64,000 nucleotides of DNA from Calditrichales bacterium (GCA_965267575.1 OZ254086.1:2080001-2144000); one strand, 5' to 3'. Positions 6,119 to 21,842 are shown, counted from the first letter of the stretch. Numbers and translations: made by a program. The notes: generated from the sequence alone by a model not told the origin.

Positions 6119-9100
6119 TTACCCTTTTGTTATTTTCTCCATGTTGTCCTCTTCTTTTACAGGTACTCTTTTTTCCAGCCAGTTGTAGATGGTTGGCAGC
6201 ACAAAAAGCGTCAGAAAGGTGGATGTGATCAATCCGCCAATGACCACGGATGCCAGAGGCCGCTGTACTTCGGAGCCCGGACCTACGTTAAAGGCCATGG
6301 GGATAAACCCGAGGCTAGCCACCAGCGCGGTCATCAAGACCGGGCGCAGACGGTCGGCGGCGCCTTCAATAACAGTGTCACGGATGCTCAGGCCCTTTTC
6401 ACGCAGATTGTTTAAATGCTCCACCAATACAATGCCATTTAGCACGGCAACACCAAACAGCGCCACAAAGCCGATACTGGCGCTTACGGAAACATACAAT
6501 CCACGTAGCCACAGCATAAAAATACCACCGGTTAATGCAAAGGGCAGGTTGAGGAAGACAAGCAGTACATAGCGCATCTTCCCGAACATGAGGTACATCA
6601 GTCCAAGAATGATCAACAGGGCCAGCGGCACCACGAGGAACAGGTGGTTTACGGCGCGCTGCTGGTTTTCAAATTCGCCGCCGTATTCAAGGAAATAACC
6701 GGCCGGAATGTCCACACGCTCATCGATGGCCTGCTGCAGGTTTGCCACGTAGCTGCCAATGTCAATATCCTCCAGGTTGGCGCCAACGATAACCCTGCGC
6801 CAGCCATTCTCACGGGCGATTTCGCGCGGGCCTTCCTGTGCTTCCACGCGGGCCACGCGCTTAAGAGGAATGTAGCCGCCATTGGGCAAATGCACCGGCA
6901 CCTCGCTGATTTGTTCAAAAGAAGCACGAATGTCCTGTGGAAAACGCATGATGATGTCGAAGCGGCGCTGGCCTTCAAACACTTCACTGACCGGCTGCCC
7001 GCCGATGCCCACTTCGATGACGCGTTGCACGTCGTCCACGTTAAGGCCGTAGGCAGCAACCTCATTGCGGTCGATGGCGACGTTGAGGTAAGGCTGACCA
7101 CCGGGCTGCTCCAGGTAAAAGTTGGCTGTGCCCGGCAACGTGCGCACAACATCCACAATCGCGTTGCCCACATCATTTAAAACTTCCAAATCTTCACCGA
7201 ATACTTTAACGGCCACATCTGACTTTACGCCGCTGGTTAGTTCATCCACGCGCATGGCGATGGGCTGGGTAAAATTGTATGCCAGCCCCGGTTCGCTTTT
7301 CAAATAAGGTTCGATCAGGCGATTTATTCTTTCCTTGGTTATTCCGGGACGCCACTCATCCATGGGCTTTAGCAAAACCCAGACGTCGGTTTGATGCACG
7401 CCCATCCAGTCGTTGGCCAAATCGCTGCGACCGGTTTTGGGTACCACGGTGCGGATCTCCGGAATATTGCGTTTCAGTTCGCCGGCCAGCCAGTTGGCAT
7501 TTTCCACTGACTCTTCCAACGTAACGCTGGGCATGCGAATCTGCTCAACGAGGATCGATCCTTCATCCAGCTCCGGTAAAAATTCCGTGCCGGAGTTCCA
7601 CAGAACCACCAGTGAAAAGAGAAAGATCAGTACGGCGGAAGGCAAAACGATGATCTTGTTATCGAGGTGCCATTGCAGCAGCCTCTGGTAGCGCGGCTTA
7701 AGCCATTCGATTACGCGGTTCCGCTTTACTTTAACGCCCTTCTTAAAAACGATCGATGACATGGCCGGCACAAAGATCAGCGCCAGTAGCAGCGAACCGA
7801 AAACGGCGGTCGCAACTGTGATAGCCATCGGACGGAACAGGATACCTTCCATGCCGCTGAAAGTGATGATGGGGACATAGACCATCAGGATAATCAGCAC
7901 ACCGAAGAAAATGGGACGGGCCACCTCTCTGGCTGCCGCGGCGATAACGGCGATCTTGCTGCCTTTGCTGTTTTGCTGCAAGCGGTGCACGATGTTTTCC
8001 ATCATCACCACGGAACCATCCACCACCATACCAAAGTCGATGGCGCCGAGGCTCATCAGGTTAGCTGCCAGTCCAAACTCACGCATGCCGATAAAGGCGA
8101 ACAGCATCGAAAGCGGAATCACCGAGGCCACAATCAGCGCGCCGCGTATTTCGCCAAGCAAGGCCAGCAATACCACGATGACCAGGAAACCGCCCTCAAC
8201 AAGGTTGGTGATCAGCGTATTGGTGGTGCGGTCTATCAGGTCGGATTGATCATAAAACGGGTCGATGTGCACACCTTCGGGCAGGCCTTTGTTGATCGAG
8301 GCAATGCGTTCTTCAACATCGCTGATCACCTCACGGCCGTTATACCCGCGCAGCATCATGATGATGCCCGTTACCACTTCGCCGCGACCATCCTGTGTCA
8401 CCGCACCTTGGCGCAGCTGCCGCCCCGGCTGGATGTCGGCGATTTCGTAAAGGTAAACCGGACGGTCCGACAGACGCGTAACGATAATGTTGCCGATATC
8501 CGCGGCGCTGTTGATCTGGCCGAAGCCACGAATGATATATTGCTCGCGGTTATGCTCCAGGTAGTTGCCGCCGGAAACGCTGTTGTTGCTGGCGATGGCT
8601 TCCATGACCTCGCCCAGGCCAATTCCCAGCTGGCGCAGCTTGCCGGGCCGTACAATGACATCGTATTGCTTCACGTAACCGCCGAATGAGTTGATTTCTG
8701 TAACACCCTGGACGTTTTTAAGCTGCGGGGCGATCAGCCAGTCCTGGATGGTGCGCAATTCGGTGAGACTGTATCCATCCCCGCGCACCACGTATTGGTA
8801 GATTTCACCAAGGGCGGTGGAGATGGGTCCCAGCTGTGGCGCCGATACCCCTTCCGGCAGCTCATCCACGATGCTCTGCACACGCTGGCTTACAAGCTGG
8901 CGGGCAAAATAGGTATCCGTGCCTTCCTCAAATTCCACGGTGACGGCCGAGAGGCCAAACTGCGAGATGGAGCGCACTTCGCTCACGTTGGGCAGACCGC
9001 TCATGGCCGTTTCGACGGGAAAGCTGACCAGCCGTTCCACGTCGTAAGGCGAATAACGTCCCGCTTTGGTAATTACCAGCACCTGTATCGGTGTTACGTC

Positions 9101-9220
9101 GGGCAGCGAGTTGATCGGGATATCGCTCAAAGCGCGGTAACCGCCAAAAGCCATCAGCGCAACAAGCGACAAGGCGACAAATTTCTGGCGCAGACTGAAG
9201 TCAATAAGTTTATGCAGCAT
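6119..9220 (-). CDS. czcA: Heavy-metal efflux RND inner-membrane pump, CzcA/CusA family
   Basis: 1033 aa; NLMSLGAIDFGMVVD (DFG-type TM4 of CzcA-like pumps), RLRPVLMTALVASLGFIP, QRPLASVVIGG. Confidence 0.92.
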   Translation of the reverse strand: MLHKLIDFSLRQKFVALSLVALMAFGGYRALSDIPINSLPDVTPIQVLVITKAGRYSPYDVERLVSFPVETAMSGLPNVSEVRSISQFGLSAVTVEFEEGTDTYFARQLVSQRVQSIVDELPEGVSAPQLGPISTALGEIYQYVVRGDGYSLTELRTIQDWLIAPQLKNVQGVTEINSFGGYVKQYDVIVRPGKLRQLGIGLGEVMEAIASNNSVSGGNYLEHNREQYIIRGFGQINSAADIGNIIVTRLSDRPVYLYEIADIQPGRQLRQGAVTQDGRGEVVTGIIMMLRGYNGREVISDVEERIASINKGLPEGVHIDPFYDQSDLIDRTTNTLITNLVEGGFLVIVVLLALLGEIRGALIVASVIPLSMLFAFIGMREFGLAANLMSLGAIDFGMVVDGSVVMMENIVHRLQQNSKGSKIAVIAAAAREVARPIFFGVLIILMVYVPIITFSGMEGILFRPMAITVATAVFGSLLLALIFVPAMSSIVFKKGVKVKRNRVIEWLKPRYQRLLQWHLDNKIIVLPSAVLIFLFSLVVLWNSGTEFLPELDEGSILVEQIRMPSVTLEESVENANWLAGELKRNIPEIRTVVPKTGRSDLANDWMGVHQTDVWVLLKPMDEWRPGITKERINRLIEPYLKSEPGLAYNFTQPIAMRVDELTSGVKSDVAVKVFGEDLEVLNDVGNAIVDVVRTLPGTANFYLEQPGGQPYLNVAIDRNEVAAYGLNVDDVQRVIEVGIGGQPVSEVFEGQRRFDIIMRFPQDIRASFEQISEVPVHLPNGGYIPLKRVARVEAQEGPREIARENGWRRVIVGANLEDIDIGSYVANLQQAIDERVDIPAGYFLEYGGEFENQQRAVNHLFLVVPLALLIILGLMYLMFGKMRYVLLVFLNLPFALTGGIFMLWLRGLYVSVSASIGFVALFGVAVLNGIVLVEHLNNLREKGLSIRDTVIEGAADRLRPVLMTALVASLGFIPMAFNVGPGSEVQRPLASVVIGGLITSTFLTLFVLPTIYNWLEKRVPVKEEDNMEKITKG

Positions 9221-9229
9221 GAGATTCTC

Positions 9230-10414
9230 CTATTCCTCCGCAAATTCGCTGTATTTGCTGAGAGCCTTGAGCGTGAATATCTGGTTGACGGCTACTTCCT
9301 CACCGGGCTGCAGGCCGCCGGCAACAATGGCCTGTTTACCGCTGATACGGTCGACGCTGATAATGCGTTTTTCAAACTGGTCCGGTGCCAGACGCACAAA
9401 AACGGCCGGTTTATCGCCCTCGTACTGGATGGCGGCGAACGGAATAAAGATCACCTCTCCGGGACTTTGGGCCTTGATCTCCATGCGCACGTTTTGTCCC
9501 GGGCGCAGCCATTGCGGCGGGTTGCTGACGAAACTGTTCACGGTCACCGAGCGGTTCTGCTCATCCAACAGCGGCACCAGGCTGCTGATGCTGCTGCTGA
9601 GCGCTTCGCCCCTGTTTTCACGCAACGCGATGCGTACGGCGTTACCTTCGGAGACAAAAGCCGCATCCTCCGGCGCCACGTAGCCGCGCACCATCACCCG
9701 TCTTGGGTTAACGATGGTACCCATGCGCGCGTAGCGTTCCACTGCCTGGCCCATATCTACCAGGTGCTCGGTAATAATGCCGTCCAGCGGTGCACGGATG
9801 GGCAAGTGCGGGTGCTCACTGCCCGATTTTTTCCACATCTCCAGGTCCTGCTCATCAACTCCTACAGCCAGTAAACGGGCGTATGCGGCCTGGACGGCGG
9901 TTTTGGCGCGGGCGTAATCGACGCGGCTTTGCTCCAGTTCACGCAGCGATTTAATGCGCTTTTCATACAGCTGCTGCTGCCGTTCCAGCTGCGCTTTGCG
10001 GAAGCTCTCTTCGGCGCTGCCGGTCAGGTAATCGGCCAGCAGGTTGGCAAACTCCAAACTTTCCAGTTCCAGCAGTACGTCGCCTTTTTTGACCCGTTCG
10101 CCCTCGTGAGCCAGGATTTTAACAACCAGCCCTTCGATGGGTGCGCTGACGATGAAGATGTGATCCGGCGCCGGCTGAACCGTTGCCGAAACAGTGACCG
10201 GGAAAGTGGTTTCCCCGCGCTGCACGGCGATGGTTTCGATTTTAAGATGTGCGGCCTGGGCCGAGTCCAGCTCGATTAACACAGGCCCGGCGCTCTCCCC
10301 GCCAGTCAGGGAAGGCGGCACGCTGCCGCTGTCTGTTGCCACGGTTTCATCGTTAGCCCCGCAGGATACGCTGATGAGCAGGGCGCTTGTCAGCAATACA
10401 AAAAGTCGTATCAT
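9230..10414 (-). CDS. czcB: RND efflux periplasmic adaptor (CzcB/CusB)
   Basis: ATG at 10414 with AAGGAG RBS and lipobox ISVSC; lipoyl half-motifs (APIEG..GERVKKGDVLL; IRAPLDG); lies between OMF and RND genes. Confidence 0.88.
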   Translation of the reverse strand: MIRLFVLLTSALLISVSCGANDETVATDSGSVPPSLTGGESAGPVLIELDSAQAAHLKIETIAVQRGETTFPVTVSATVQPAPDHIFIVSAPIEGLVVKILAHEGERVKKGDVLLELESLEFANLLADYLTGSAEESFRKAQLERQQQLYEKRIKSLRELEQSRVDYARAKTAVQAAYARLLAVGVDEQDLEMWKKSGSEHPHLPIRAPLDGIITEHLVDMGQAVERYARMGTIVNPRRVMVRGYVAPEDAAFVSEGNAVRIALRENRGEALSSSISSLVPLLDEQNRSVTVNSFVSNPPQWLRPGQNVRMEIKAQSPGEVIFIPFAAIQYEGDKPAVFVRLAPDQFEKRIISVDRISGKQAIVAGGLQPGEEVAVNQIFTLKALSKYSEFAEE

Positions 10415-10424
10415 GTTTCTCTCC

Positions 10425-11672
10425 TTAGCTTTCATTTGCCGTGCCGAAGACAAGGTCGCGTCCCAGATATTGCTCCAGTTCTATGACCTTGATGTAATAG
10501 TCACGCAAGGCGTCGTAATAACGTTTTTGACTGTTCAGGTAGGTGCGTTGTGTATCCAGCAGGTTAAGCAGGTCGATTTCCCCGGCACGGTAACCCTCCA
10601 TTGTGGCCTGCAGCAAGCGCTCGGCATCGCGCTGCGTTTGTGAAAAATAACGTTGCACGATTGCCCGGCTGGCTTCATATCCGTGCCAGGCGTCTTCGAT
10701 CTGCCTTTTTAGTTCCAGCGCGGTGGCGTGCCGCTCGATGATGGCGATGTTTTTTTCGGCGCGGGCCTTGCTTACCTGCGCTGCCTGGCGCAAAGGAAAC
10801 CACAGCGGTATGGAAAGGCCGGCCTCAAAGCCGTAAAAGTCGTAGCCGCTGCCATAATCCTGGCGGTAAACGCTCACGGCGATGGAGGGCATAAAGCTGC
10901 CCCAGGCTTCGCGCACCTGTCCGCTGCCGGCGGAAATCTGTGCTTCGCGCGCACGCATCAGCGGCTGTGTATAAAGCGTGGCTAAAATGGAGTCTTGCGG
11001 GATGTGCACTTCCGTAAAGACAAGCGAATCGGGGAAAACGATGTTATACTTTTGCTTTTCCGTATCCAGCCCGATGGCCGTAAACAGGGCATAGCGCATT
11101 TCGTGGAAGGCGCGCGTGGCCTCGTCCAGATCGCTTTGCGCCTCATTAAACTGTATGGCTGTTTTAAGCTTTTCCAGCTCGGTGGCGTCGCCGGCCTCCA
11201 GGCGGATAGAGCTGCTTTCATCCAGTTCGCGGGCAATCTCCAGTTCACGCTCACGCAGTTCCACAATCTTCCGGGCATGGATAAGGCGCGTGTAATGCTG
11301 CTTCACCTCGCCGCGTAAACGCCGTTCGGCAAAAGTGATCGTGTGCCGTTGGGCCTCCACTTCCGCGTCGCGGCGGTTGTAACGAAAAAGATATTGCAGG
11401 GGAAAATCCAGCGCCTGCGAAATAGTCTGGCGCTGTTCGCTGAAATCATCATTGGCCGAACGCAGGCCCTCCTGCATAAAAGAGACGGACGGGTCCGGCG
11501 GGGCTAGTGCCAGGCACCGTTCGGCCAGGGATTGCTGCAGTTGCTTGTGCATCTGTTGCAGCGCCGGGCTGTTGCTCATGGCGTGGTCAATGGCACGGCT
11601 AAGGGTAAGTTCGTTCTGGGCGCCGGCCATAGCCACGCAGGCAAGCAGAAACAGGATCAGGTATTTTTTCAT
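10425..11672 (-). CDS. czcC: TolC/CzcC family outer-membrane efflux protein
   Basis: Signal peptide; LTLSRAIDHAMSNSP, GLSIPLW, YRAGEIDLLNLLDTQ repeats typical of OEP proteins. Confidence 0.88.
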   Translation of the reverse strand: MKKYLILFLLACVAMAGAQNELTLSRAIDHAMSNSPALQQMHKQLQQSLAERCLALAPPDPSVSFMQEGLRSANDDFSEQRQTISQALDFPLQYLFRYNRRDAEVEAQRHTITFAERRLRGEVKQHYTRLIHARKIVELRERELEIARELDESSSIRLEAGDATELEKLKTAIQFNEAQSDLDEATRAFHEMRYALFTAIGLDTEKQKYNIVFPDSLVFTEVHIPQDSILATLYTQPLMRAREAQISAGSGQVREAWGSFMPSIAVSVYRQDYGSGYDFYGFEAGLSIPLWFPLRQAAQVSKARAEKNIAIIERHATALELKRQIEDAWHGYEASRAIVQRYFSQTQRDAERLLQATMEGYRAGEIDLLNLLDTQRTYLNSQKRYYDALRDYYIKVIELEQYLGRDLVFGTANES

Positions 11673-11816: not shown

Positions 11817-12503
11817 ATGCGTATACTTTTGGTTGAAGACGAAGCCAAGGTGGCCTCTTTTCTGGAAAGGGGCCTGCGTGAAGCGGGCTATGACGTGGTC
11901 CTGGCTGATGACGGGTCATCCGGATACGAGCAGGCGCGCAACGGTGAATTCGATTTTATGATCCTGGACTGGATGCTGCCCGGATTGAGCGGCATTGAGT
12001 TATGCCGCCGCATCCGTGAACAAGACAGTGATGTGCCGGTTATTTTGCTGACCGCGCGCGACACGCTTGATGATAAAATAACCGGGCTCGATTGCGGCGC
12101 CGATGATTACATCACCAAGCCCTTTGCCTTCGAAGAGCTGCTGGCCCGTATACGTTCCTTATACCGGCGCACGCGCCTGGGCGATGATACAATCCTGCAC
12201 ATAGCCGGCCTGTGTATTGACCTTTTTGAGCACCGCGTTTCCACCAACGGCAGCGACGTGCCGCTCTCCAACCGCGAATTTGAACTGCTTGTCTATTTTG
12301 CCCGGCGACCCAACAAACTGGTAACGCGTGAAATGCTGGCCCGCGATGTCTGGAAAATCACTTTTGATACGGGTACCAACTACATAGACGTTTATGTGAA
12401 TTACCTCAGAAACAAGCTGAAAGGAGCTACCAGTAAACCGCTTATTTTTACCCTGCGCGGCTCCGGCTATATCCTGAAGACCGAAAATGAATCGAACCAT
12501 TAA
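11817..12503 (+). CDS. OmpR-family heavy-metal response regulator (CusR/CzcR-like)
   Basis: MRILLVEDE, LDWMLPG, GADDYITKPF, winged HTH with VW...FD..TNYIDVYVNYLRNK; divergent from czcCBA. Confidence 0.9.
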   Translation: MRILLVEDEAKVASFLERGLREAGYDVVLADDGSSGYEQARNGEFDFMILDWMLPGLSGIELCRRIREQDSDVPVILLTARDTLDDKITGLDCGADDYITKPFAFEELLARIRSLYRRTRLGDDTILHIAGLCIDLFEHRVSTNGSDVPLSNREFELLVYFARRPNKLVTREMLARDVWKITFDTGTNYIDVYVNYLRNKLKGATSKPLIFTLRGSGYILKTENESNH

Positions 12504-13872
12504 AAATAAACTGCTGTTGTGGAACGGCTTTATCGTTGTGGCCACGTTACTGCTTGTATCCGCGTTGATCTACCTGATCCTGAAGGAGCACCTTTACGGG
12601 CAGGTGGACGGGCGCCTGCTGGCAGAGGTGGAAGAGCTGGGCCGGCTGAGTCATTATAAAAGCGGCACGATTGTTTTTAGCGACAGCAGCGAGTGGATGG
12701 AGCATGAGCACGTTGAACTGGGCGAGCACGCCATTTTTCTGCAGATATCCATGGGTGACAGCGTAGTGTTGCGTTCGCAAAATCTTGCCGAATGGGGACT
12801 CGCACTAAGCCCGCTGAACGATATTGGCCCCCATGCCGTGCTCAGTGATACCATTCTGCAAGGCATCTCTATGCGCCGGGCCGATCTTTACAACAGCCCT
12901 TTAATGATAACCGCCCTACAGTCCACCGATGAAATCCACGCTTTTCTGGAGCATATTCTTACCACGTTTCTGATGATCAGTCCGTTTGTGCTTGTTCTGG
13001 CTTTGTGGGGCACCTTCGTTGGTGTGAACAGATCGCTGCAACCGCTAAAGCGTATCACCGCCACCGCCCGGCACATTTTTGATTCCGGTGATCTCAAACA
13101 GCGCATAACCGCGCACAAAGCGGATGAAGAGCTGCTGCAACTCATCGATACGCTGAATGCCCTGTTCGGTAAACTGGAAAGTTCCCTGCGGCAAATGAAG
13201 AATTTTTCCGCTGACGCGTCGCACGAGCTACGCACGCCGTTAACCATCATGCGCGGGCAGATTGAAGTGCTGCTTTCCCGCGAGCGTCCTGCCGCGGAAT
13301 ACCGCCAGGCCCTGGAATCCGTGCACGAGGAAGTGCTGAAGATGACGCATATTATCAATAACCTGCTGCAACTGGCGCGCGTGGACGAGGGCAAGGAAGA
13401 TCTGGATATGGCGGTTTTGCGCCTCGATAAAGTTGTGGAAGATTTTTTGCCGCTGGCCCGCCGGATGACCGAGAAAAGCAATCTGCAACTACGCCACAGC
13501 GTGGAAGATTCGCTGGAACTGCTGGGCAACCGCGAAGCCCTAATTGAGCTGTTGACCAACCTGACCGACAACGCCGTAAAATACAATCGCGACAAAGGCT
13601 ATGTTTTCCTGCGCGGCTACGCTTCCAACGGCGGCATCCACCTGGAAGTGGAGGACAACGGCATCGGTATCGCCCCGGAGGAGCGGCAGCAGATCTTTGA
13701 ACGCTTTTACCGGATCGACAAGACGCGCTCCCGGCAGATGGGCGGCAGTGGCCTGGGCCTCAGCATCGTAAACTGGATCGTAAAAGAACACAAAGGCCGT
13801 ATCAGCATCGAGGGCGAGCCCGGTGACAAAACCGTTTTTCATGTGATTTTCCCGCGGCTCGAGTTTGAATGA
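12487..13872 (+). CDS. Heavy-metal sensor histidine kinase (CusS/CzcS-like)
   Basis: Two TM segments, HAMP domain, FSADASHELRTPL H-box, NLTDNAVKY, DNGIGI, GGSGLGL; overlaps the regulator stop. Confidence 0.9.
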   Translation: MNRTIKNKLLLWNGFIVVATLLLVSALIYLILKEHLYGQVDGRLLAEVEELGRLSHYKSGTIVFSDSSEWMEHEHVELGEHAIFLQISMGDSVVLRSQNLAEWGLALSPLNDIGPHAVLSDTILQGISMRRADLYNSPLMITALQSTDEIHAFLEHILTTFLMISPFVLVLALWGTFVGVNRSLQPLKRITATARHIFDSGDLKQRITAHKADEELLQLIDTLNALFGKLESSLRQMKNFSADASHELRTPLTIMRGQIEVLLSRERPAAEYRQALESVHEEVLKMTHIINNLLQLARVDEGKEDLDMAVLRLDKVVEDFLPLARRMTEKSNLQLRHSVEDSLELLGNREALIELLTNLTDNAVKYNRDKGYVFLRGYASNGGIHLEVEDNGIGIAPEERQQIFERFYRIDKTRSRQMGGSGLGLSIVNWIVKEHKGRISIEGEPGDKTVFHVIFPRLEFE

Positions 13873-13939: not shown

Positions 13940-14830
13940 ATGGCTGTAACAGGACAAAAACCACACATACTGTTTCGATTGTTGTTGTTTGCGCTGTATG
14001 CCTCGGCCCTGCTGCTTGCGGGTTACGTAGTCTGGAATTACTGGGACTACTACATGCAGCCTTTTCAACTGCGGCCGCGCCACCCCGATTACCGGGTGAT
14101 GAAGCCCGGCGGCTTTATCAGTCATGGCCTGGGTATTCTCGGCACGCTGATGATGCTGCTCTTGCTGCTCTATTCGGTGCGTAAACGCACGCGCCTCTTC
14201 GGGCGTGCCGGGGCCGTAAGCCGCTGGTTGGATGTACATATTTTCCTGGGCAGCATGGGACCGGTATTCGTGGTGCTGCATTCTACCTTTAAGCTTAACG
14301 GGCTGGTTGCGGTCAGCTTTTGGTCCATGGTGCTGGTGGCGCTTAGTGGTGTTTTGGGGCGCTACCTTTATCTGCAAATCCCCCGCGGCATCCGCGGTAA
14401 CGAGCTTACGCTGGACGATGTGGAAAAGGAGAACAGGGAGTTGGCCGGCATTCTGCGGGAAGAGTACCACCTTAATGAAGATGAAATTCAAAAACTGGAA
14501 CAGGCAATCATGCCGCCGCGCTATTCTCAATCTATGTTCGCGCTTTTTTTTGGTTTGCTGTTCAGCGAGCTGCGCTTATGGTTTCGGCTGCCCGCCATTC
14601 GCCGGCAGATACGCCGCCGGCATAATGTCCCTGCGCAGGATGTGCACCGTTTTGTCAAAATTGTGCACCGTAAAGCCGTCCTTGCGCGACGCATTGCGCT
14701 GCTGGACCGCGTGCGTCTGCTGTTCCATTATTGGCATGTTTTTCATAAACCCTTTGCCATCATCATGTACCTGATTATGTTGGTGCATGTGGGTATCAGC
14801 GTCTATTTAGGCTACACCTGGATATTTTAA
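13940..14830 (+). CDS. Polytopic inner-membrane protein with TM histidines (possible b-heme, ferric-reductase-like)
   Basis: About 5-6 hydrophobic helices carrying His: ISHGLG, WLDVHIFLG, VLHSTF, HYWHVFHKP, LVHVG. Confidence 0.6.
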   Translation: MAVTGQKPHILFRLLLFALYASALLLAGYVVWNYWDYYMQPFQLRPRHPDYRVMKPGGFISHGLGILGTLMMLLLLLYSVRKRTRLFGRAGAVSRWLDVHIFLGSMGPVFVVLHSTFKLNGLVAVSFWSMVLVALSGVLGRYLYLQIPRGIRGNELTLDDVEKENRELAGILREEYHLNEDEIQKLEQAIMPPRYSQSMFALFFGLLFSELRLWFRLPAIRRQIRRRHNVPAQDVHRFVKIVHRKAVLARRIALLDRVRLLFHYWHVFHKPFAIIMYLIMLVHVGISVYLGYTWIF

Positions 14831-16489
14831 ATGAACAAGCAAAGCCTTCTTGATTCTGCTCTTGATCATGCTCATGATCACCTCCTGCCTTTCGCCGTCG
14901 CTGTTGTCCTGTTTTTTGTGCTGCCACTGTGTGCCCAGCTTTCGCCGGGTGAACTGCACAAAAGCCACCAACAGCTCGAGGGTGTTACCAACTGCACACA
15001 ATGCCATGAAGCCGGCGAGGGCTTGTCACCGGCAAAATGTCTTGATTGCCATACGCTCCTGGCGCAGCGCATTGCTGCCGGCAAAGGGCTGCACGCCAAA
15101 AGCGGCTTTGCTGATTGCGGCAGTTGCCACATTGAGCACCAGGGCCGCGATTTTGATTTGGTTTACTGGCCGCAGGGAATGGAAAACTTCAGCCATGCCG
15201 AAACCGGCTTTGAGCTTCAGGGGGCGCACAAAAAAGTGAAATGCCGCGACTGTCACAATCCGCAAAACATTGTAAACAGAGGGCCTTTGTTAAGCGCCGG
15301 AAAGGATTTGTCACGCACTTTCCTCGGGCTGCAGACCAACTGCCTTTCCTGCCACGAAGACACGCACCGCGGCCAGCTTGCCGGGAATTGTCTCAACTGC
15401 CATGATCAGGATAAATGGAAACCGCTGGCACGCTTTGATCATAGCGCTGCCCGTTTCCGGCTGAGCGGACGCCACCAAAACGTGGCCTGCGAAAGCTGCC
15501 ACAAAACAGAGCATGATGCCGCCGGCGCCTTCATCCGTTTTCGCGGGATGCCTTTCGGGGATTGCAACAGTTGCCACCGCGATCCGCACCAGGGCCGTTT
15601 GAGCGGCGCCTGCCGCACCTGCCACAGCACATCCGGCTGGCAGGTACTGGCACGCAACGGCTTTGACCACAGCAGCACGCGCTTCCCGCTGACCGGTCTT
15701 CACAAAACACTGGATTGCAAAGCCTGCCATAAGTCTCATTCTACGCTGAGTTTCGGTACCTGCGCCGATTGCCATGTTGACGTACACCGGGGGCAGCTGG
15801 CTTCCGGAACGGATTGCTCCGCCTGCCACACAACGGCAGGGTTCAGCCCGGCGCAATTCAGCCTTGATCAGCACCGACAAAGCGACTTCCCCCTCCTGGG
15901 AGCGCACCGCGCGATTCCCTGCGAAGCCTGCCACCAGCCATTAAGTCCATCTGCGGACCGCGGCCGGCTGCGCTTCCGCTTTGCTGACAAGACCTGCCAG
16001 GGCTGCCACAACAATCCTCACAGCGGATTAACCGTCTCCACGATCAACAGCGAAAGCCCGAACTGGTGCAGCGCCTGCCATACAAATAACAGCTGGCGGG
16101 ATGTGAGCTTCGATCACACCATAACCGGCTTTGCGCTGGAAGGTGAGCATGCGCGTACCTCCTGCAAAGGATGCCACAAAAACGCCGGCAATACCGTAGC
16201 TTTTGGCGGCTTGTCCCAAAAGAAAAATTGCAGCAGTTGCCACGAGGATGTGCACAGGGGGCAGCTTGCCTCCGCCAACGGCCAAACCGATTGTGCCCGC
16301 TGCCACGCTCCGGCCGGCTGGAAAAATATTGCTTTTAACCATAACCGCGACAGCCGCTTTAAGCTGGATGGCGCCCATATCGGCCTGGAGTGTGCCGCCT
16401 GCCACCCGCGCCAGGGCGATGGCAAAACACTCACCTTCAAGCCACTGGATACATCCTGTACGGCATGCCACGGTAAGGAGCGTTCATGA
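14831..16489 (+). CDS. Multiheme cytochrome c, 20 CxxCH motifs
   Basis: Hydrophobic N-terminal signal; 20 CxxCH counted by hand, arranged in FDH..F.L.G.H triheme repeats. Confidence 0.92.
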   Translation: MNKQSLLDSALDHAHDHLLPFAVAVVLFFVLPLCAQLSPGELHKSHQQLEGVTNCTQCHEAGEGLSPAKCLDCHTLLAQRIAAGKGLHAKSGFADCGSCHIEHQGRDFDLVYWPQGMENFSHAETGFELQGAHKKVKCRDCHNPQNIVNRGPLLSAGKDLSRTFLGLQTNCLSCHEDTHRGQLAGNCLNCHDQDKWKPLARFDHSAARFRLSGRHQNVACESCHKTEHDAAGAFIRFRGMPFGDCNSCHRDPHQGRLSGACRTCHSTSGWQVLARNGFDHSSTRFPLTGLHKTLDCKACHKSHSTLSFGTCADCHVDVHRGQLASGTDCSACHTTAGFSPAQFSLDQHRQSDFPLLGAHRAIPCEACHQPLSPSADRGRLRFRFADKTCQGCHNNPHSGLTVSTINSESPNWCSACHTNNSWRDVSFDHTITGFALEGEHARTSCKGCHKNAGNTVAFGGLSQKKNCSSCHEDVHRGQLASANGQTDCARCHAPAGWKNIAFNHNRDSRFKLDGAHIGLECAACHPRQGDGKTLTFKPLDTSCTACHGKERS

Positions 16490-18435
16490 AATATGTTTTG
16501 TTTGCTCTGTTTTTGCCGTGTTTTGTGTGGACTCAGCAGCTGAATCCGCATGGCAGGCTGGATATGGACTGCACTACCTGCCACAGCACGTCCGGCTGGA
16601 CACCCCTGCGCGCGGACCTGCAATTCGATCACGCTACAACCGGTTTTGCCCTGAAGGGCGGGCATAGCGCATTGCAATGCGGCGATTGCCATCAAAACCT
16701 CAATTTTGCCTTTATTGGGCACGCGTGCGCCGACTGCCACGCCGACATCCACCGCGGCGAGCTGGGCCTGCGTTGTGAAAACTGCCATACCCCGCAAAGC
16801 TGGGATAACCGTCGCGAAGCTTTGGAACTGCATGCCGGCACGCGCTTTCCGCTGCTCGGTCTGCACGCCTCCCTCGATTGCCAGGCCTGCCACGGCGATG
16901 CAACCACACAGCAAGAGTTTACGCTCACCCCGGTGGAATGCAAAGGCTGCCACCTGGACACGTATATGTCCACGCTGGACCCGCAACATGAACTGGCACG
17001 CTTCAGCCTGGATTGCGCGCAGTGCCATAATGTGGACCAGGTCACCTGGCAAAGGGCGCGCTACAGCCATCCAGAGGTATTTGTTTTGGATGGCGCGCAC
17101 AAGAGTGTTGATTGTGTCACCTGCCACGAGAGTGCTTTTACCGGCACCGACGACGCCTGCGAAACCTGCCACATGGCCGATTTTGAGCAAGCGGCAAACC
17201 CGGATCACAGCGCTTTCCGTTTTCCAACCGTGTGCGAAGAGTGCCATACCACCATGAGCTGGGACCGTGATCTGTTTGACCATACCGCCGAAAGCGGATT
17301 TGAACTGATCGGCGCGCACAGCACGGCATTTTGCATCAGCTGTCACGTAAATAATCAACTTACCGGGCTGGCCCGCGATTGTATTGGCTGTCATGAAAAC
17401 GATTTTAACCAGGCGCAGGAGCCCGATCACGTTGCCGCGCAGCTTCCGCAGGATTGCCTGCAGTGCCACACGCAACAGGCATGGCAGCCGGCTACCTTTG
17501 ACCACACGCAGACAGCTTTTATTTTGACCGGCGCCCATATCGGCGAAGATTGCCAGAGCTGTCACCTTGACGGGGTTTTCGAGGGTACACCAACGGATTG
17601 CTGGTCCTGCCACCAGCCGGACTATGAGAAGGCGGCCGACCCTAACCACGTGGCCGGACAGTTTGACCAGGATTGCGCCAGCTGCCATAGCACCACGGCC
17701 TGGGAGCCTGCCGACTTTGATCATAACCAGACCAATTTTACGCTGACCGGGGCGCATCTGAATACGGATTGCCAGAGCTGCCACATCAACGGGGTTTTTA
17801 GCGGTACGCCGACAGATTGCTGGTCTTGCCACGAACCGGACTATAACCAGGCCGCAGATCCTGACCACGTCACCAACCAGTTTGACCAGGACTGCGCCAC
17901 CTGCCACACAACCACGGCGTGGTCGCCGGCCGATTTTGACCACACTCTCACGGCGTTTCCGCTGACCGGCGCGCATGTTTCCCAGGATTGCCAGGCCTGC
18001 CACGCGGACGGGTACAGCAACACGTCAACGGAATGCGTTGCCTGCCACGAAGACGACTTTAATACAACGACCGATCCGCCACACGGCGCCGCAGGGTTTC
18101 CGCAAACCTGCGAGGAATGCCATAACACCACCGCCTGGGAACCCGCAAACTGGGACCACGACGCCAGTTATTTTCCCATCTACAGCGGTGAGCACCGCGA
18201 GGAGTGGGATGTGTGCGCGGATTGCCACTTGGACCCGGCAAACTACAGCCGCTTTGAATGCATCAACTGCCATGAGCACAGCCGGAGCGAGATGGATGAC
18301 AAGCACCGCGAGGTAAGCGGTTATGTATATGAAAGTACGGCCTGTATTGATTGTCACCCAGACGGGCGCGCCGATGACGACCTGCTGCGGCCATTCATTC
18401 CGAAGCAGCTAAGAAGGACGGGGACACCATGGTAA
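16486..18435 (+). CDS. Multiheme cytochrome c, 25 CxxCH motifs
   Basis: Signal peptide; 25 CxxCH counted by hand; about 73-aa triheme repeats; ATGA overlap with the previous gene. Confidence 0.92.
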   Translation: MKYVLFALFLPCFVWTQQLNPHGRLDMDCTTCHSTSGWTPLRADLQFDHATTGFALKGGHSALQCGDCHQNLNFAFIGHACADCHADIHRGELGLRCENCHTPQSWDNRREALELHAGTRFPLLGLHASLDCQACHGDATTQQEFTLTPVECKGCHLDTYMSTLDPQHELARFSLDCAQCHNVDQVTWQRARYSHPEVFVLDGAHKSVDCVTCHESAFTGTDDACETCHMADFEQAANPDHSAFRFPTVCEECHTTMSWDRDLFDHTAESGFELIGAHSTAFCISCHVNNQLTGLARDCIGCHENDFNQAQEPDHVAAQLPQDCLQCHTQQAWQPATFDHTQTAFILTGAHIGEDCQSCHLDGVFEGTPTDCWSCHQPDYEKAADPNHVAGQFDQDCASCHSTTAWEPADFDHNQTNFTLTGAHLNTDCQSCHINGVFSGTPTDCWSCHEPDYNQAADPDHVTNQFDQDCATCHTTTAWSPADFDHTLTAFPLTGAHVSQDCQACHADGYSNTSTECVACHEDDFNTTTDPPHGAAGFPQTCEECHNTTAWEPANWDHDASYFPIYSGEHREEWDVCADCHLDPANYSRFECINCHEHSRSEMDDKHREVSGYVYESTACIDCHPDGRADDDLLRPFIPKQLRRTGTPW

Positions 18436-20009
18436 GAAACGCTTTGTCGATTGCCCTGGTTGCCATAGCCCTGGCTGCGGCGGATGATCTGCGTGTGTCC
18501 GTGCGCTATGTTTCGGCGGACCACGTTTACGTTGACAAAGGCCGCGCCGCGGGTTTGCAGGTTGGGGATACCCTTAAAGTAGAGGGCACGGCGCGTCACG
18601 GGGAGGTCTTGCTGGAAGTGTTGTTTGTTGCAGACCATTCTGCGTCCTGTGGCTTTTTGGCCGAGCCCGTGTTGCTGCAAAAAGGGGAAACGGCCGTCAG
18701 GGTGGGTACAAGGCACTCGCCACAACAAGAAAGCGAAGCGGATACATTGGTAACGGAGAAGGTGAAGCCGCTGCCGGTAACGCAAAAAACCGCCACACCC
18801 AAAGTCCGTAAACCGATGCGCGTGCGCGGAACCGCCACGGCCGGACTAAGCAGCTACCGCGATAACAGCCGCACGCTCAACGAGCCTGATTTTGGACTGC
18901 GTCTCAATGCGCAGGATCTGCTTGATGGAACATTGCATTTCCGCTTGCGCTGGAGATCGCGCTATTACCTGCGAGACGGTTACGCTAGCGGCTTGCCGGA
19001 AGATGAATGGCGTCATCGTCTTTATGAAGCGTCCCTCGAATATGAGCCCACTGCTTCAACACGTATCAGGGCGGGCCGCATATTGGCCTGTTCATTCAGC
19101 GCTGCGGGTTTTTTGGATGGCCTGCTGTTTAGCCAAAAACTGAGCGAAAACTGGAGCGTCGGTCTGTATGCCGGAAGCCAGCCGGATTACCGCGACAACA
19201 GCCTGGATACCGACACGCGCAAAGGCGGTTTGTTTGCTGGCTACGAAAAAGAGTTTTCCGCAGGGCGCCGTTTTGAGCATACCACGGCCATTGCCGCCTC
19301 CTACCATCTTGGCGAGATAGACCGCGAGATGCTGTTTACGCGCAACAGCTTTTATGCTTCGGGCTGGTCTCTTTACCAGATGCTGGAAGTGGATTATAAC
19401 CGCTCCTGGCGCAAAGAAAAAAGCGGAAACACTTTCACGATGTCATCATTGTACTTGTCGGCGCGCTATAGTTTTAACACGGACCTAAGCGCCGGGCTGA
19501 GCTATGATACGCGTCGCAGTTACTACACGTGGCAAACACGCAGCCTGGCCGATTCGCTGTTTGACGACGCGGCCCGCTCCGGCTGGCGCACGGATGTGCA
19601 ATGGCGTCCATTGAGAAAACTGCATGTCGGCCTGCGTGGCGGCTGGCGTGAACGTGGAAATGATAATGCGGCAAAATTTGCTTCGGCCCGTATTTCCGCG
19701 CGCAGCATTTGGAAAGGTATCGGTGCGGCGTTTGATCTGCAGGTTTTTGAAAACGCCTTTAGCGAAGGCTATTACCCGGGCGCGACGATTTACTGGGATA
19801 TCAACGCCAACTGGCAGGTGAGTGGCGGCTATACAGTCTATAATTATAAATTAAAACAGGCAGCGGATTACACGCGGCAGGAGCGCTGGCAGTTTTCGTT
19901 TTTGGCCAACCTGACGCAGAGGTTGTATTGGAGCGGCTGGTTGCAGCAACATAACGGCGCCGGCCCCGCCGCAATCTGGCTGAACAGCGGTTTGGGATAC
20001 CGTCTGTAA
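18429..20009 (+). CDS. Putative outer-membrane beta-barrel (porin of a porin-cytochrome complex)
   Basis: Signal peptide; alternating amphipathic aromatic-rich strands; C-terminal strand IWLNSGLGYRL typical of BAM substrates; overlaps the cytochrome gene. Confidence 0.72.
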   Translation: MVRNALSIALVAIALAAADDLRVSVRYVSADHVYVDKGRAAGLQVGDTLKVEGTARHGEVLLEVLFVADHSASCGFLAEPVLLQKGETAVRVGTRHSPQQESEADTLVTEKVKPLPVTQKTATPKVRKPMRVRGTATAGLSSYRDNSRTLNEPDFGLRLNAQDLLDGTLHFRLRWRSRYYLRDGYASGLPEDEWRHRLYEASLEYEPTASTRIRAGRILACSFSAAGFLDGLLFSQKLSENWSVGLYAGSQPDYRDNSLDTDTRKGGLFAGYEKEFSAGRRFEHTTAIAASYHLGEIDREMLFTRNSFYASGWSLYQMLEVDYNRSWRKEKSGNTFTMSSLYLSARYSFNTDLSAGLSYDTRRSYYTWQTRSLADSLFDDAARSGWRTDVQWRPLRKLHVGLRGGWRERGNDNAAKFASARISARSIWKGIGAAFDLQVFENAFSEGYYPGATIYWDINANWQVSGGYTVYNYKLKQAADYTRQERWQFSFLANLTQRLYWSGWLQQHNGAGPAAIWLNSGLGYRL

Positions 20010-20018
20010 CGGAGGAGC

Positions 20019-21320
20019 ATGGAGAATATTCTGATTTGGGGCATCACCGTTTTTATCGCCCTGCTGATAATTTTACCTTACTGGCTGAAGAGCCTCAAAC
20101 GCCATAAAAGCGATCAGGAAAAGCATGCCGAAGCCGAGCGCCTTGGAGCTACAAAAGCGGTAGCCCAGCACCCGCAGATAAACGATATGTATTGCATTGG
20201 TTGCGGCGCCTGTGTGGATGCCTGCCCCGAGGGCGATGTACTGGGAATCGTGAGTGGCCGGGCCGCGATTATCAACGGCCTTAAGTGCGTGGGCCACGGA
20301 CTTTGCGAGGCCGCCTGTCCTGTTGGCGCAATTCATGTTGGTCTGGGCGATATGAGCAACAGGGAAGACATCCCGCAGCTGAACGAAGAATACGAAACCA
20401 ATCTGCCGAGCGTTTACATTGCCGGGGAGTTGGGCGGGCTGGCGCTTATCAAAAACGCCATTACGCAGGGCGCAAAAGTGGCCGACGCCATAAAGCAAAA
20501 AAATGACGGGGATTCCACCCAGACCTATGATGTGGCGATCGTGGGTGCCGGACCCGCCGGCCTGAGTACGGCGCTGCGCTCGCTTGAGCATAAGATGAAA
20601 ACAGTCATTATAGATCAGCAGGATGCCGGGGGCACCATACTGCAGTACCCGCGCAAAAAACTGGTTATGACACAGCCCGTGGAAATACCGCTATACGGTA
20701 AGTTAACCCGTCCGGAATACAGCAAGGAAGAGCTGCTGGAAATATGGCAGAAAATGCGCGACCAATACCGCCTCAACATTCAAAGCGGTGAAAAGCTTAT
20801 TGACCTGAGAAAAGAAGGTAAGGCGTACCTGATAAAAACGGACAAAAACCAGTATAGCGCGCAAAGTGTTGTTTTGGCCCTGGGCCGGCGTGGCACTCCG
20901 CGCAAACTGGGCGTGCCCGGTGAAGACCAGTCCAAGGTGATGTACAAGTTGATGGACGCCGAATCCTACCAAAAGCATGACATCCTGATTGTGGGTGGTG
21001 GTGACAGCGCCATTGAAGCGGCCATAGGCCTGGCGCGGCAAAAAGGCAATCGTATTACAATCTCTTACCGCAAAGAAAAATTTTTCCGCATCAAAACACG
21101 CAATGAACAACGCGTCGGAGAAATGATCGATACAGGCAAAATCAAAGCGTTGTTCAGTTCAAATGTCATATCCATCGAAAAAGGTAAAGTGATTTTGGAT
21201 ACCACGGACGGACAACAAACAATCCCGAATGATTTTGTCTTTATTTTTGCCGGCGGTGAACCGCCCTTTAAACTGCTAAAACAATTCGGTATCCGTTTTG
21301 GCGGAGAGTATAATTCCTAA
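20019..21320 (+). CDS. Membrane-anchored 4Fe-4S dicluster ferredoxin fused to a TrxR-like FAD/NAD(P)H oxidoreductase
   Basis: N-terminal TM helix; CIGCGACVDACP and CVGHGLCEAACP; GAGPAG FAD motif; GGGDSA..SYR NAD(P)H motif; GGAGGAG RBS. Confidence 0.85.
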   Translation: MENILIWGITVFIALLIILPYWLKSLKRHKSDQEKHAEAERLGATKAVAQHPQINDMYCIGCGACVDACPEGDVLGIVSGRAAIINGLKCVGHGLCEAACPVGAIHVGLGDMSNREDIPQLNEEYETNLPSVYIAGELGGLALIKNAITQGAKVADAIKQKNDGDSTQTYDVAIVGAGPAGLSTALRSLEHKMKTVIIDQQDAGGTILQYPRKKLVMTQPVEIPLYGKLTRPEYSKEELLEIWQKMRDQYRLNIQSGEKLIDLRKEGKAYLIKTDKNQYSAQSVVLALGRRGTPRKLGVPGEDQSKVMYKLMDAESYQKHDILIVGGGDSAIEAAIGLARQKGNRITISYRKEKFFRIKTRNEQRVGEMIDTGKIKALFSSNVISIEKGKVILDTTDGQQTIPNDFVFIFAGGEPPFKLLKQFGIRFGGEYNS

Positions 21321-21337
21321 CATATTGGCACTCATTT

Positions 21338-21366
21338 TTGACAATCGCTCTCTGGTCTTCTATACT
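21338..21366 (+). promoter_or_regulatory. sigma70-type promoter for the DoxX gene
   Basis: TTGACA-17 bp-TATACT. Confidence 0.65.
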
Positions 21367-21419
21367 TTAAGCTGTATCTCTTGTTTTTCTCCACAAAACC
21401 AACCAATAAAGGGGGTATT

Positions 21420-21779
21420 ATGCAGGCTCTAACCACAACAGCAGCGCGTTATATTTTTATATTGCCGTTTGCCGTATTTGGCATTTTTCATTTTATGAAT
21501 GCTTCGCAAATGGCGGGAATGGTGCCGATACCGGGCGGCGTCTTTTGGGTTTACCTTACCGGATTGGCTCATATTTTGGCGGTCATCGCTTTCCTAACCG
21601 GAAAGCAGGCCAAGCTGGCGGCACTATTACTGGCGGTGATGCTGGCTATATTTGCCTTGTCCGTCCAGCTGCCGGCTGTAATGGGCGGCAACCAGGCGGC
21701 CATGAGCGCCTTTCTTAAAGATATTGCCCTGGCCGGCGGCGCCCTGACCTGGGCGGGGAAGTTTGATACTCAATCCTAA
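21420..21779 (+). CDS. DoxX family membrane protein
   Basis: ATG 21420 after AAAGGGGG; FGIFHF, VP.P....WVYLTG, FLKDIALAGGAL. Confidence 0.8.
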   Translation: MQALTTTAARYIFILPFAVFGIFHFMNASQMAGMVPIPGGVFWVYLTGLAHILAVIAFLTGKQAKLAALLLAVMLAIFALSVQLPAVMGGNQAAMSAFLKDIALAGGALTWAGKFDTQS

Positions 21780-21806: not shown

Positions 21807-21842
21807 AAGCCGGATGCCTGTTTTGGTATCCGGCTTTTTTTG
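21807..21842 (+). terminator. Rho-independent terminator
   Basis: aagccggatgcc-tgtttt-ggtatccggctt followed by a T run. Confidence 0.75.

Follow-up and report, generated by a model that had tools for sequence, protein, structure and literature searches.

The subject of this report is a cluster of five genes (g1-g5, 13940-21320) in a 64,000-nt stretch of the genome of a Calditrichales bacterium (GCA_965267575.1 OZ254086.1:2080001-2144000). This stretch is referred to below as the window, and all coordinates are counted from its start. The cluster is a candidate electron conduit between the cytoplasm and the cell surface, and its first four genes resemble PCC3, a published type of porin-cytochrome gene cluster. 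An earlier note on this DNA had claimed five co-oriented genes with gaps or overlaps of 0-9 bp, and the open reading frame (ORF) listing of the window places five abutting + strand ORFs at exactly these coordinates. Genes g1 and g2 adjoin directly (0 bp), g2 and g3 overlap by 4 bp, g3 and g4 overlap by 7 bp, and g4 and g5 are separated by 9 bp. The five genes are:

13940-14830, + strand: g1, 296 aa, inner-membrane protein with five helices, a predicted di-heme cytochrome b like the membrane protein of PCC3
14831-16489, + strand: g2, 552 aa, 20-heme cytochrome c, probably a periplasmic wire
16486-18435, + strand: g3, 649 aa, 25-heme cytochrome c built of triheme repeats of ~73 aa, a variable-length wire
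18429-20009, + strand: g4, 526 aa, 22-strand beta-barrel of the outer membrane, preceded by a small beta domain
20019-21320, + strand: g5, 433 aa, membrane-anchored ferredoxin domain fused to a flavoprotein of the YpdA/thioredoxin-reductase fold

The AlphaFold2 (AF2) model of g1 has a mean pLDDT of 92.8 and consists of five membrane helices (residues 10-33, 59-83, 93-114, 121-145 and 263-289) and a helical insert (146-262). The protein has 13 histidines and no cysteine. The description of g1 in the earlier note as a His-rich polytopic membrane protein is thus borne out, but only four of the histidines are conserved in 51-52 of the 52 aligned homologues: H100 (51/52), H114, H269 and H283 (each 52/52). 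The remaining nine are less well kept, the nearest being H266 (47/52) and H62 (42/52). The four conserved residues belong to two WX3HX13H motifs, at 96 (WLDVH..H) and 265 (WHVFH..H), and an SGVLG motif is found at 136; both WX3HX13H motifs are present in 47/52 homologues and SGXXG in 50/52. We predict from this pattern that g1 is a di-heme cytochrome b, with the four histidines acting as two H-x13-H pairs. In the homologues, the loop 79-95 contains on average 5.9 Lys+Arg residues versus 0.2 Asp+Glu, and the insert 146-262 contains on average 19.7 Lys+Arg. This charge bias suggests that both regions are cytoplasmic, which would place H100/H269 near the cytoplasmic face of the membrane and H114/H283 near the periplasmic face.

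The g1 family is large, with 2737 clusters at E up to 0.001 (phmmer, 1.84 billion representatives), and g1 shares with g4 the lack of any Pfam or NCBIfam family above cut-off. A profile of the 52 homologues compared with the PDB sequences gave only chance-level coiled-coil matches (best E 0.25). In a protein atlas, g1 was connected to a cluster auto-named "pyridine nucleotide-disulfide oxidoreductase" (0.93) and to a "ferric reductase like" cluster (0.86), which we treat as leads only.

The protein encoded by the last gene of the cluster, g5, opens with a hydrophobic helix, which is followed by a 4Fe-4S dicluster domain (Fer4_7, 40.3 bits, cut-off 27) and a Pyr_redox_3 domain (163.7 bits, cut-off 30). 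It was noted earlier as a membrane-anchored oxidoreductase with two [4Fe-4S] clusters. The anchor and the iron-sulfur (Fe-S) flavoprotein architecture stand, but the canonical eight-cysteine arrangement does not: g5 has seven cysteines, all within the motifs CxxCxxCxxxCP at 59 and CxxHxxCxxxCP at 90. C59, C65, C69, C90, H93, C96 and C100 are invariant in 45/45 aligned homologues; the second cluster may be a His-ligated 4Fe-4S cluster or a 3Fe-4S cluster. The hydrophobic helix and the Lys/Arg residues that follow it are conserved in the homologues. This arrangement, together with the need for cofactor insertion in the cytoplasm, suggests that the redox domains face the cytoplasm.

The closest solved relative of g5 is YpdA/Bdr (7a7b, E 3.9e-27), followed by thioredoxin reductases (TrxR) and TrxR-type ferredoxin-NADP reductases. 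The score against the YpdA/Bdr bacillithiol disulfide reductase family itself (TIGR04018) is 185.6 bits, below the cut-off of 339.9, and the cysteine of the GPCG loop of YpdA is an alanine in g5 (GAGPAG). A role as a thiol-disulfide reductase was considered and rejected, since g5 has no redox cysteine. The GGGDSA...YRK segment of g5 aligns with the matching stretch of the second dinucleotide-binding domain in YpdA/TrxR. Residues 119-139 (20373-20435) align weakly, in three independent PDB matches, with the C-terminal FAD segment of the same proteins; the location of this FAD-closing segment before the FAD domain suggests an apparent circular permutation. The N-terminal part of g5 is widespread in public data (at least 7306 protein clusters at E up to 1e-8), and one homologue is named from Caldithrix abyssi (P0262).

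The two cytochromes were claimed to carry 20 and 25 hemes, and precisely 20 and 25 CXXCH motifs are counted in g2 and g3, at 27.6 and 26.0 aa per heme, respectively; neither protein contains a CX3CH, CX4CH or CXXCK motif. Both are placed by Pfam in c7/c3 multiheme families. They score 49.6 and 37.3 bits against the decaheme DmsE/MtrA family (TIGR03508, cut-off 192.2), the HmcA family gives 64.2 bits (cut-off 400), and neither cytochrome matches a PDB sequence at E up to 0.01. The N-termini were inspected by eye for export signals. All 31 full-length g2 homologues listed have a signal-like N-terminus, the mature chain beginning with QLSPG in 30 of them and with QISPG in one, and g2 contains exactly 20 CXXCH motifs in 32 loci. 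We conclude from these features that g2 is probably a periplasmic wire. An inner-membrane-anchored cytochrome was rejected for g2, since the hydrophobic N-terminus closes with a conserved A-x-A / QLSPG junction in the same homologues.

The g3 cytochrome is repetitive, with a self-identity of 24% at an offset of 73 residues and 17% at an offset of 146, corresponding to an internal period of 73 residues. Cytochrome_C7 matches eight stretches of the protein, and TIGR04257 also matches. Among the g3 homologues the number of CXXCH motifs varies from 16 to 58 and equals 3n+1 in 38 of the 44 ORF calls. These counts, combined with the 73-residue period, indicate that the wire changes length by whole triheme modules. 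The host genome (closed, 4.73 Mb, 49.6% G+C) contains 14 ORFs with at least four CXXCH motifs, of which g2 and g3 are the largest, while g1, g4 and g5 are each present in a single copy. It also contains genes for cytochrome c maturation, whose presence elsewhere in the genome the earlier note had proposed to confirm.

The 526-residue g4 was described as beta-barrel-like, and its modeled structure agrees. The AF2 model, built from a 23-sequence alignment (mean pLDDT 79.2), begins with a signal helix and a small beta domain (22-93), after which a disordered linker leads to a 22-strand barrel (131-525). Foldseek retrieves ushers and porins (E ~1e-9), and VIA-align superimposes ~350 residues on 22-strand TonB-dependent transporter barrels with Z-scores of 16-18 (FyuA 17.7, Cir 16.9, BtuB 16.7). 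MtrB (6r2q_B) ranks 39th, with a Z-score of 13.6 and a root-mean-square deviation of 7.1. A C-terminal phenylalanine, the usual signal for outer-membrane insertion, is present in 50/59 g4 homologues, while the g4 of the window ends in leucine. No Pfam or NCBIfam family matches g4, and the 23 family members found in a word-indexed search are all unnamed or hypothetical.

To place the cluster in a wider context, related loci were collected through g4. The single g4 protein as a query found no related locus, and a profile from a 13-row alignment fetched 71. The locus records span about eight phylum-level lineages, among them Calditrichota, Zixibacteria, Ignavibacteria, KSB1, Krumholzibacteriia, Acidobacteriota, Gemmatimonadota and Fibrobacteraceae. 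Forty-one of the 71 loci extend at least 5.5 kb upstream and at least 1.6 kb downstream of g4, and in 38 of these all five genes are present; one more (L050) was counted as incomplete by the overlap rule, yet it contains all five, and its exclusion is an artefact. The order is g1-g2-g3-g4-g5 in 32 loci, g1-g5-g2-g3-g4 in three, g1-g2-g5-g3-g4 in two and g5-g1-g2-g3-g4 in one. Gene g5 thus shifts its position yet stays in the cluster across four gene orders, and g4 is its immediate upstream neighbor in 51 of the 64 loci that have room for it. Of 86 genomes in the phylum of the window, 51 contain g4 and 52 contain g1: 49 have both, two have g4 alone, three have g1 alone and 32 have neither. The five genomes with only one of the two genes are all fragmented, and in two of the three with g1 alone the match falls at a contig start or no more than ~600 bp from it. 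These co-occurrence counts are descriptive, as related genomes are not independent.

A complete copy is also present on pEMTOL02, a 100-kb plasmid of the cultured Bacteroidota isolate Emticicia oligotrophica (L080, 8812-21396), in the order g1-g5-g2-g3-g4 and with 23 CXXCH motifs in g2 and 40 in g3. The plasmid set directly follows a 1028-aa ccsA cytochrome c biogenesis gene and precedes a gene for a GW-domain protein; no CcsBA gene was found beside the cluster in the 71 loci or in the window's own genome. Its placement on a plasmid suggests a mobile, self-sufficient module. The recurrence of the five genes in other genomes, across several phylum-level lineages and on this plasmid, was one of the checks proposed at the outset, and we conclude that the set is a real, widespread unit and not a chance neighborhood.

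The first four genes have a published counterpart. He, Barco, Emerson and Roden (2017) described PCC3 from Fe(II) oxidizers and other Proteobacteria as a set encoding a porin, extracellular and periplasmic multiheme cytochromes (median 34 and 21 hemes, respectively) and a membrane protein (PMC5566968). The latter has ~300 aa, five helices, an SGXXG motif on helix 4 and WX3HX13H motifs on helices 3 and 5, and was read as a di-heme cytochrome b, possibly quinone-active, in a cluster serving Fe(II) oxidation (PMC5566968). In Leptothrix cholodnii, the PCC3 porin has 22 predicted strands and the cytochromes have 24 and 22 hemes, at 27-30 aa per heme (PMC5566968). PCC3 was predicted from genomes and is of untested function (PMC5566968); likewise, later papers, as far as their accessible text goes, treat PCC3 as four genes of untested function (PMC10734462, PMC12442390).

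In the features compared, each of g1-g4 agrees with the corresponding PCC3 protein. The membrane protein g1 (296 aa, five helices, SGVLG, two WX3HX13H) agrees with the published signature. The 20 CXXCH motifs and 27.6 aa per heme of g2 compare with ~21-27 hemes and ~27 aa per heme in PCC3, its periplasmic location being the probable one argued above. The repeats and variable heme number of g3 (25 here, 16-58 in relatives) are shared, as is the outer-membrane barrel, for which g4 gives a 22-strand model with Z-scores of 16-18. This fit is to the published feature descriptions and not a sequence match to the proteobacterial proteins. The hosts differ, those of PCC3 being Proteobacteria and those found here Calditrichota, other lineages of the FCB group and Acidobacteriota. 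The published description of PCC3 has no fifth conserved gene, whereas g5 is present here; and in print the membrane protein is tied to quinones and Fe(II) oxidation, whereas we propose an outward path fed by NAD(P)H.

The new part of the cluster is therefore the fifth gene, g5, as the four-gene core is already published as PCC3. The earlier note knew of no characterized example of such an operon. This needs amendment for the core, which is in print as the untested PCC3 (PMC5566968). Neither the five-gene form, nor a link between PCC3 and a flavoprotein, nor an NAD(P)H donor was found in the literature searched, which extended to PMC5566968 except for its supplementary Figure 4 and Tables 3-5, where "other redox proteins" may be named. 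The conduits of Acidobacteriota and Verrucomicrobiota in a 2026 preprint are, in the part of it that is accessible, other clusters, with 8-13-heme cytochromes (10.64898/2026.05.27.727921).

Pairing of g1-like proteins with cytoplasmic redox proteins and periplasmic cytochromes is not confined to the five-gene set. In PCC4, an Fe-S gene (pfam13247) lies directly upstream of the membrane protein gene, and the two are annotated as fused in one genome; triads of a multiheme cytochrome, an HX13H membrane protein and an unnamed "other redox protein" have also been described (PMC5566968). PCC4 and the triads share the membrane-protein signature with g1, but have smaller cytochromes (4, 5 and 10, or 7-10 hemes) and other cytoplasmic partners, and many triads lack a porin. 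The same Fe-S pairing was seen among our loci. In L072, a g1-like paralogue has a cNMP-binding 4Fe-4S protein on one side and a 10-heme cytochrome on the other, and a Pyr_redox+FHA+Fer2 protein is encoded nearby. On a Methylophaga plasmid (L081, 10007-13361), a g1-like gene stands in a row with genes for a FAD_binding_6+NAD_binding_1+Fer2 protein and a 7-heme cytochrome. On an Acetobacter plasmid (L082, 4537-7259), a 2Fe-2S protein adjoins a g1-like protein, the third gene being hypothetical or a small multiheme cytochrome. Both plasmid sets lie inside heavy-metal or copper resistance islands. Direct fusions to a g1-like core are also found, with 4Fe-4S domains (P0175) and with a 2Fe-2S domain (P0169). 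That different, unrelated flavo- or Fe-S proteins hold the same place beside the g1 family supports a cytoplasmic redox partner for g1 and, without proving it, a NOX-like route from NAD(P)H through FAD, Fe-S and b hemes to the c-heme wires and the porin.

Some of these loci have features of their own. The locus in L072 (839-16485; also L073-L075) represents PCC4-like clusters of the window's phylum, with 5-, 7- and 10-heme cytochromes. These clusters also encode a Ser/Thr protein kinase with PEGA domains and FHA-domain proteins, which hint at control by phosphorylation. In L076-L078, from related genomes, short g1-like proteins (197-208 aa) are encoded directly upstream of MtrA-sized 10-heme cytochromes (297-320 aa); these loci are a third, minimal pairing of the g1-like and multiheme cytochrome families.

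On balance, we favor the reading that the cluster encodes a porin-cytochrome conduit of the PCC3 type with its own NOX-like input module at the inner membrane. In the proposed path, g5 would be anchored by its single N-terminal helix with the Fe-S and flavin domains in the cytoplasm, and NAD(P)H would be oxidized at its FAD. Electrons would then pass to the two Fe-S clusters of g5, one of them putatively held by three cysteines and the conserved histidine, from there to the heme b of g1 on the cytoplasmic side (H100/H269), and on to the heme b on the periplasmic side (H114/H283). From g1 they would reach the 20-heme periplasmic g2 and the 25-heme repeat protein g3. The latter, as the candidate outside cytochrome, would cross or sit at the g4 barrel and could reduce extracellular Fe(III)/Mn(IV) minerals, humic material or other metals, the whole route bypassing quinones. 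The order NAD(P)H, FAD, Fe-S, b hemes, multihemes and porin had been put forward in the earlier note; it fits the predicted topologies, the two H-x13-H pairs and the partners of the g1 family, while the electron donor and the direction of flow are what we infer. At -0.32 V, NAD(P)H is a strong enough reductant for mineral or humic acceptors, and electrons leaving the cell are assisted by the membrane potential. Outward flow would thus be favored by both the NAD(P)H potential and the membrane potential, and the reverse would be uphill twice. Such export would conserve no energy by itself and would use up membrane potential, so its role would likely be disposal of reducing equivalents or reduction of extracellular metals and not proton-pumping respiration.

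The input half of this path has the logic of known systems. NOX, FRE and STEAP proteins pass electrons outward from NAD(P)H to a flavin and then to two stacked b hemes bound by His pairs of two helices, without quinones, and MsrQ-Fre is a two-component system of the same logic. The path proposed here follows the same scheme, but the dehydrogenase g5 is a thioredoxin-reductase fold with an Fe-S domain and not FAD_binding_8/NAD_binding_6, and its acceptor would be a 45-heme chain instead of O2, Fe(III) chelates or MsrP. Hmc and Tmc of sulfate reducers likewise join a periplasmic multiheme cytochrome, a membrane cytochrome b and a cytoplasmic Fe-S protein into one transmembrane electron path. Their layout is similar; however, they run inward from periplasmic hydrogen oxidation, have an HdrD-like cytoplasmic subunit and have no porin.

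The output half can be compared with MtrCAB of Shewanella and the Pcc system OmbB-OmaB-OmcB of Geobacter, in which, as here, a barrel is paired with periplasm-facing and outward-facing multiheme cytochromes. Those systems have 10+10 or 8+12 hemes, in contrast to 20 and 25 here, and are fed by the quinol oxidases CymA, ImcH and CbcL. MtrB is a 26-strand barrel, which for g4 ranks below the 22-strand transporters, and with the DmsE/MtrA family also below its cut-off, the cluster falls outside the MtrCAB type. The c7-type triheme chain of g3 resembles the GSU1996-type "nanowire" cytochromes, which have 12 hemes versus 25 here (16-58 in relatives); g3 is encoded together with a porin.

The cluster is preceded by a two-component system and, further upstream, by divergent metal-efflux genes:

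6119-11672, - strand: CzcCBA/CusCBA-type heavy-metal RND efflux set, comprising CusA/CzcA (TIGR00914, 1173.7 bits, cut-off 701.45), an RND adaptor and a TolC-like protein
11817-12503, + strand: OmpR-type response regulator with Response_reg and Trans_reg_C (TIGR01387, 221.3 bits, cut-off 279.2)
12487-13872, + strand: sensor histidine kinase of the heavy-metal type with HAMP, HisKA and HATPase_c (TIGR01386, 246.1 bits, cut-off 292.55)

The best family for the response regulator is the heavy-metal response regulator. The kinase gene shares the strand of g1 and stops 67 bp short of it; no terminator-like site was found between 13872 and 13940. Homologous regulator/kinase pairs are found beside the cluster in L037, L039 and L045. 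From this arrangement, the two-component system probably controls expression of the cluster. The system, the efflux genes and the similar neighbors elsewhere suggest that the control is metal-responsive; the efflux set itself is divergent from the regulator/kinase pair and is a neighbor outside the conduit.

The small gene on the 3' side of g5 stands apart from the cluster: a strong promoter-like site precedes it (21338-21366) and a terminator-like hairpin follows it (21807-21836). This gene (21381-21779), directly after g5, encodes a small DoxX-like membrane protein (E 0.00039, below cut-off) and had no homologue in a tblastn search of the 71 related loci. Farther downstream, the window contains two tandem rRNA operons (16S-23S-5S, 40054-50207) with identical scores, which account for an ORF-free stretch and a strong GC skew. 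Two tRNA genes (41667-41832) separate 16S from 23S in the first operon; in the second, only ~140 bp lie between 16S and 23S, with no tRNA match.

Several observations weigh against the NAD(P)H-fed reading. The assignment of NAD(P)H to g5 derives from homology to YpdA/TrxR at a score below the family cut-off. For g1 as a b-type cytochrome, family and structure searches gave no match above cut-off or noise. At E up to 0.01, the Pfam scan lists only DUF4405 (PF14358; E 0.0012, 19.8 bits, below the cut-off of 26.7, residues 199-286) and no ferric-reductase family (PF01794), although g1 has the His pairs of the ferric reductase/NOX domain. By sequence, g1 is at best a distant relative of DUF4405, some members of which have been shown to bind heme b (PMC11334425). 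The g1 model has no Foldseek match in the PDB at E up to 0.001. Its VIA-align matches to di-heme proteins are all within the stated noise for helical bundles, namely a designed two-heme bundle (Z-score 9.5), CybB (9.2), STEAP1 (8.7), STEAP4 (8.5), cytochrome b561 and Dcytb (8.2) and FdnI (8.0). Two loci with room for the full set lack it: L029 has neither g1 nor g5, and L039 has no g1 and a g5-like match cut by the locus end. A role as an anaerobic electron sink cannot be general, since the carriers include the plasmid of an aerobe (pEMTOL02). Finally, g1 may have a quinone site. Di-heme b proteins with two H-x13-H pairs include quinone-reactive ones, such as bc1 cytochrome b and FdnI, and the published reading of the PCC3 membrane protein, proposed by He et al. 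for the same signature, is that of a quinone-active cytochrome b for Fe(II) oxidation (PMC5566968). A quinone-linked system, in which g1 would be a quinol oxidase or quinone reductase joining the menaquinone pool to the c-heme wires and g5 an optional second input or a mere traveler, also suits the proteobacterial PCC3, described in the accessible text as four genes without a flavoprotein (PMC5566968, PMC12442390). We nevertheless regard it as unlikely: g5 is kept in 38/41 loci despite changing position, it keeps its membrane anchor, in other lineages g1-like proteins have unrelated Fe-S, FAD or NAD proteins as neighbors or fusion partners, and no quinone-site motif turned up, although none was specifically sought.

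The same path could instead have metal homeostasis or defense as its purpose, the metal-sensing two-component system triggering electron export from NAD(P)H that alters the redox state of periplasmic or extracellular metals. The heavy-metal-type regulator and kinase just before g1 in the same orientation, the divergent CusA/CzcA-type efflux genes, the homologous pairs flanking the cluster in three other loci, and the three-gene versions of Methylophaga and Acetobacter in metal resistance islands all agree with such a role. Those three related loci, however, are the only ones besides the window with an adjacent pair among the 41 with room; the regulator and the kinase score below their family cut-offs, no metal-binding component was identified, and 45 c hemes are a large investment for detoxification. 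We rate this purpose as somewhat less probable again than the quinone link. Least probable of all, and hardly to be expected, is an inward conduit, in which electrons from Fe(II), a cathode or a partner cell would pass through g1 and g5 to NAD(P)+. PCC3 does occur in Fe(II) oxidizers and was proposed for electron uptake (PMC5566968, PMC10734462), and porin-cytochrome conduits can run either way, as stated for Mto/Mtr in the accessible text of PMC10734462. Against this, the carriers, by their record titles, belong to lineages whose members are mostly anaerobic heterotrophs of sediments and not known Fe(II) oxidizers, and the cluster has no energy-coupling subunit. A donor such as Fe(II), near 0 V, is too weak to reduce NAD(P)+ (-0.32 V), and electron entry into the negative cytoplasm is further uphill.

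A broader generalization of the NAD(P)H-fed reading can be offered tentatively, and we hold it with less conviction than the reading itself. The membrane protein of PCC3 and PCC4 might be a bacterial counterpart of the NOX/ferric-reductase heme domain with an exchangeable dehydrogenase. In combination with g5, it might form a quinone-independent NAD(P)H:extracellular-acceptor oxidoreductase that is tuned in length by gain or loss of triheme modules and mobile on plasmids. If so, FAD, two Fe-S clusters, two b hemes and 45 c hemes would form a single hard-wired chain from the cytoplasm to the cell surface, and the view of PCC3 as quinone-linked and Fe(II)-oxidizing would have to be revised, for the five-gene form at least.

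Electron entry from the inner membrane into extracellular conduits is known for few model organisms, where it proceeds through quinol oxidases. PCC3 is widespread in genomes, and g5 offers a testable hypothesis for the missing step at the inner membrane. Bench tests are feasible, since the genes are present in cultured bacteria, a g5 homologue in Caldithrix abyssi and the full set on the Emticicia oligotrophica plasmid. If the outward, NAD(P)H-fed reading is true, many heterotrophs of sediments would be able to dispose of reducing equivalents on minerals or humic matter with no need for a respiratory chain, which would have a bearing on carbon and metal cycling and on bioelectrochemical uses.

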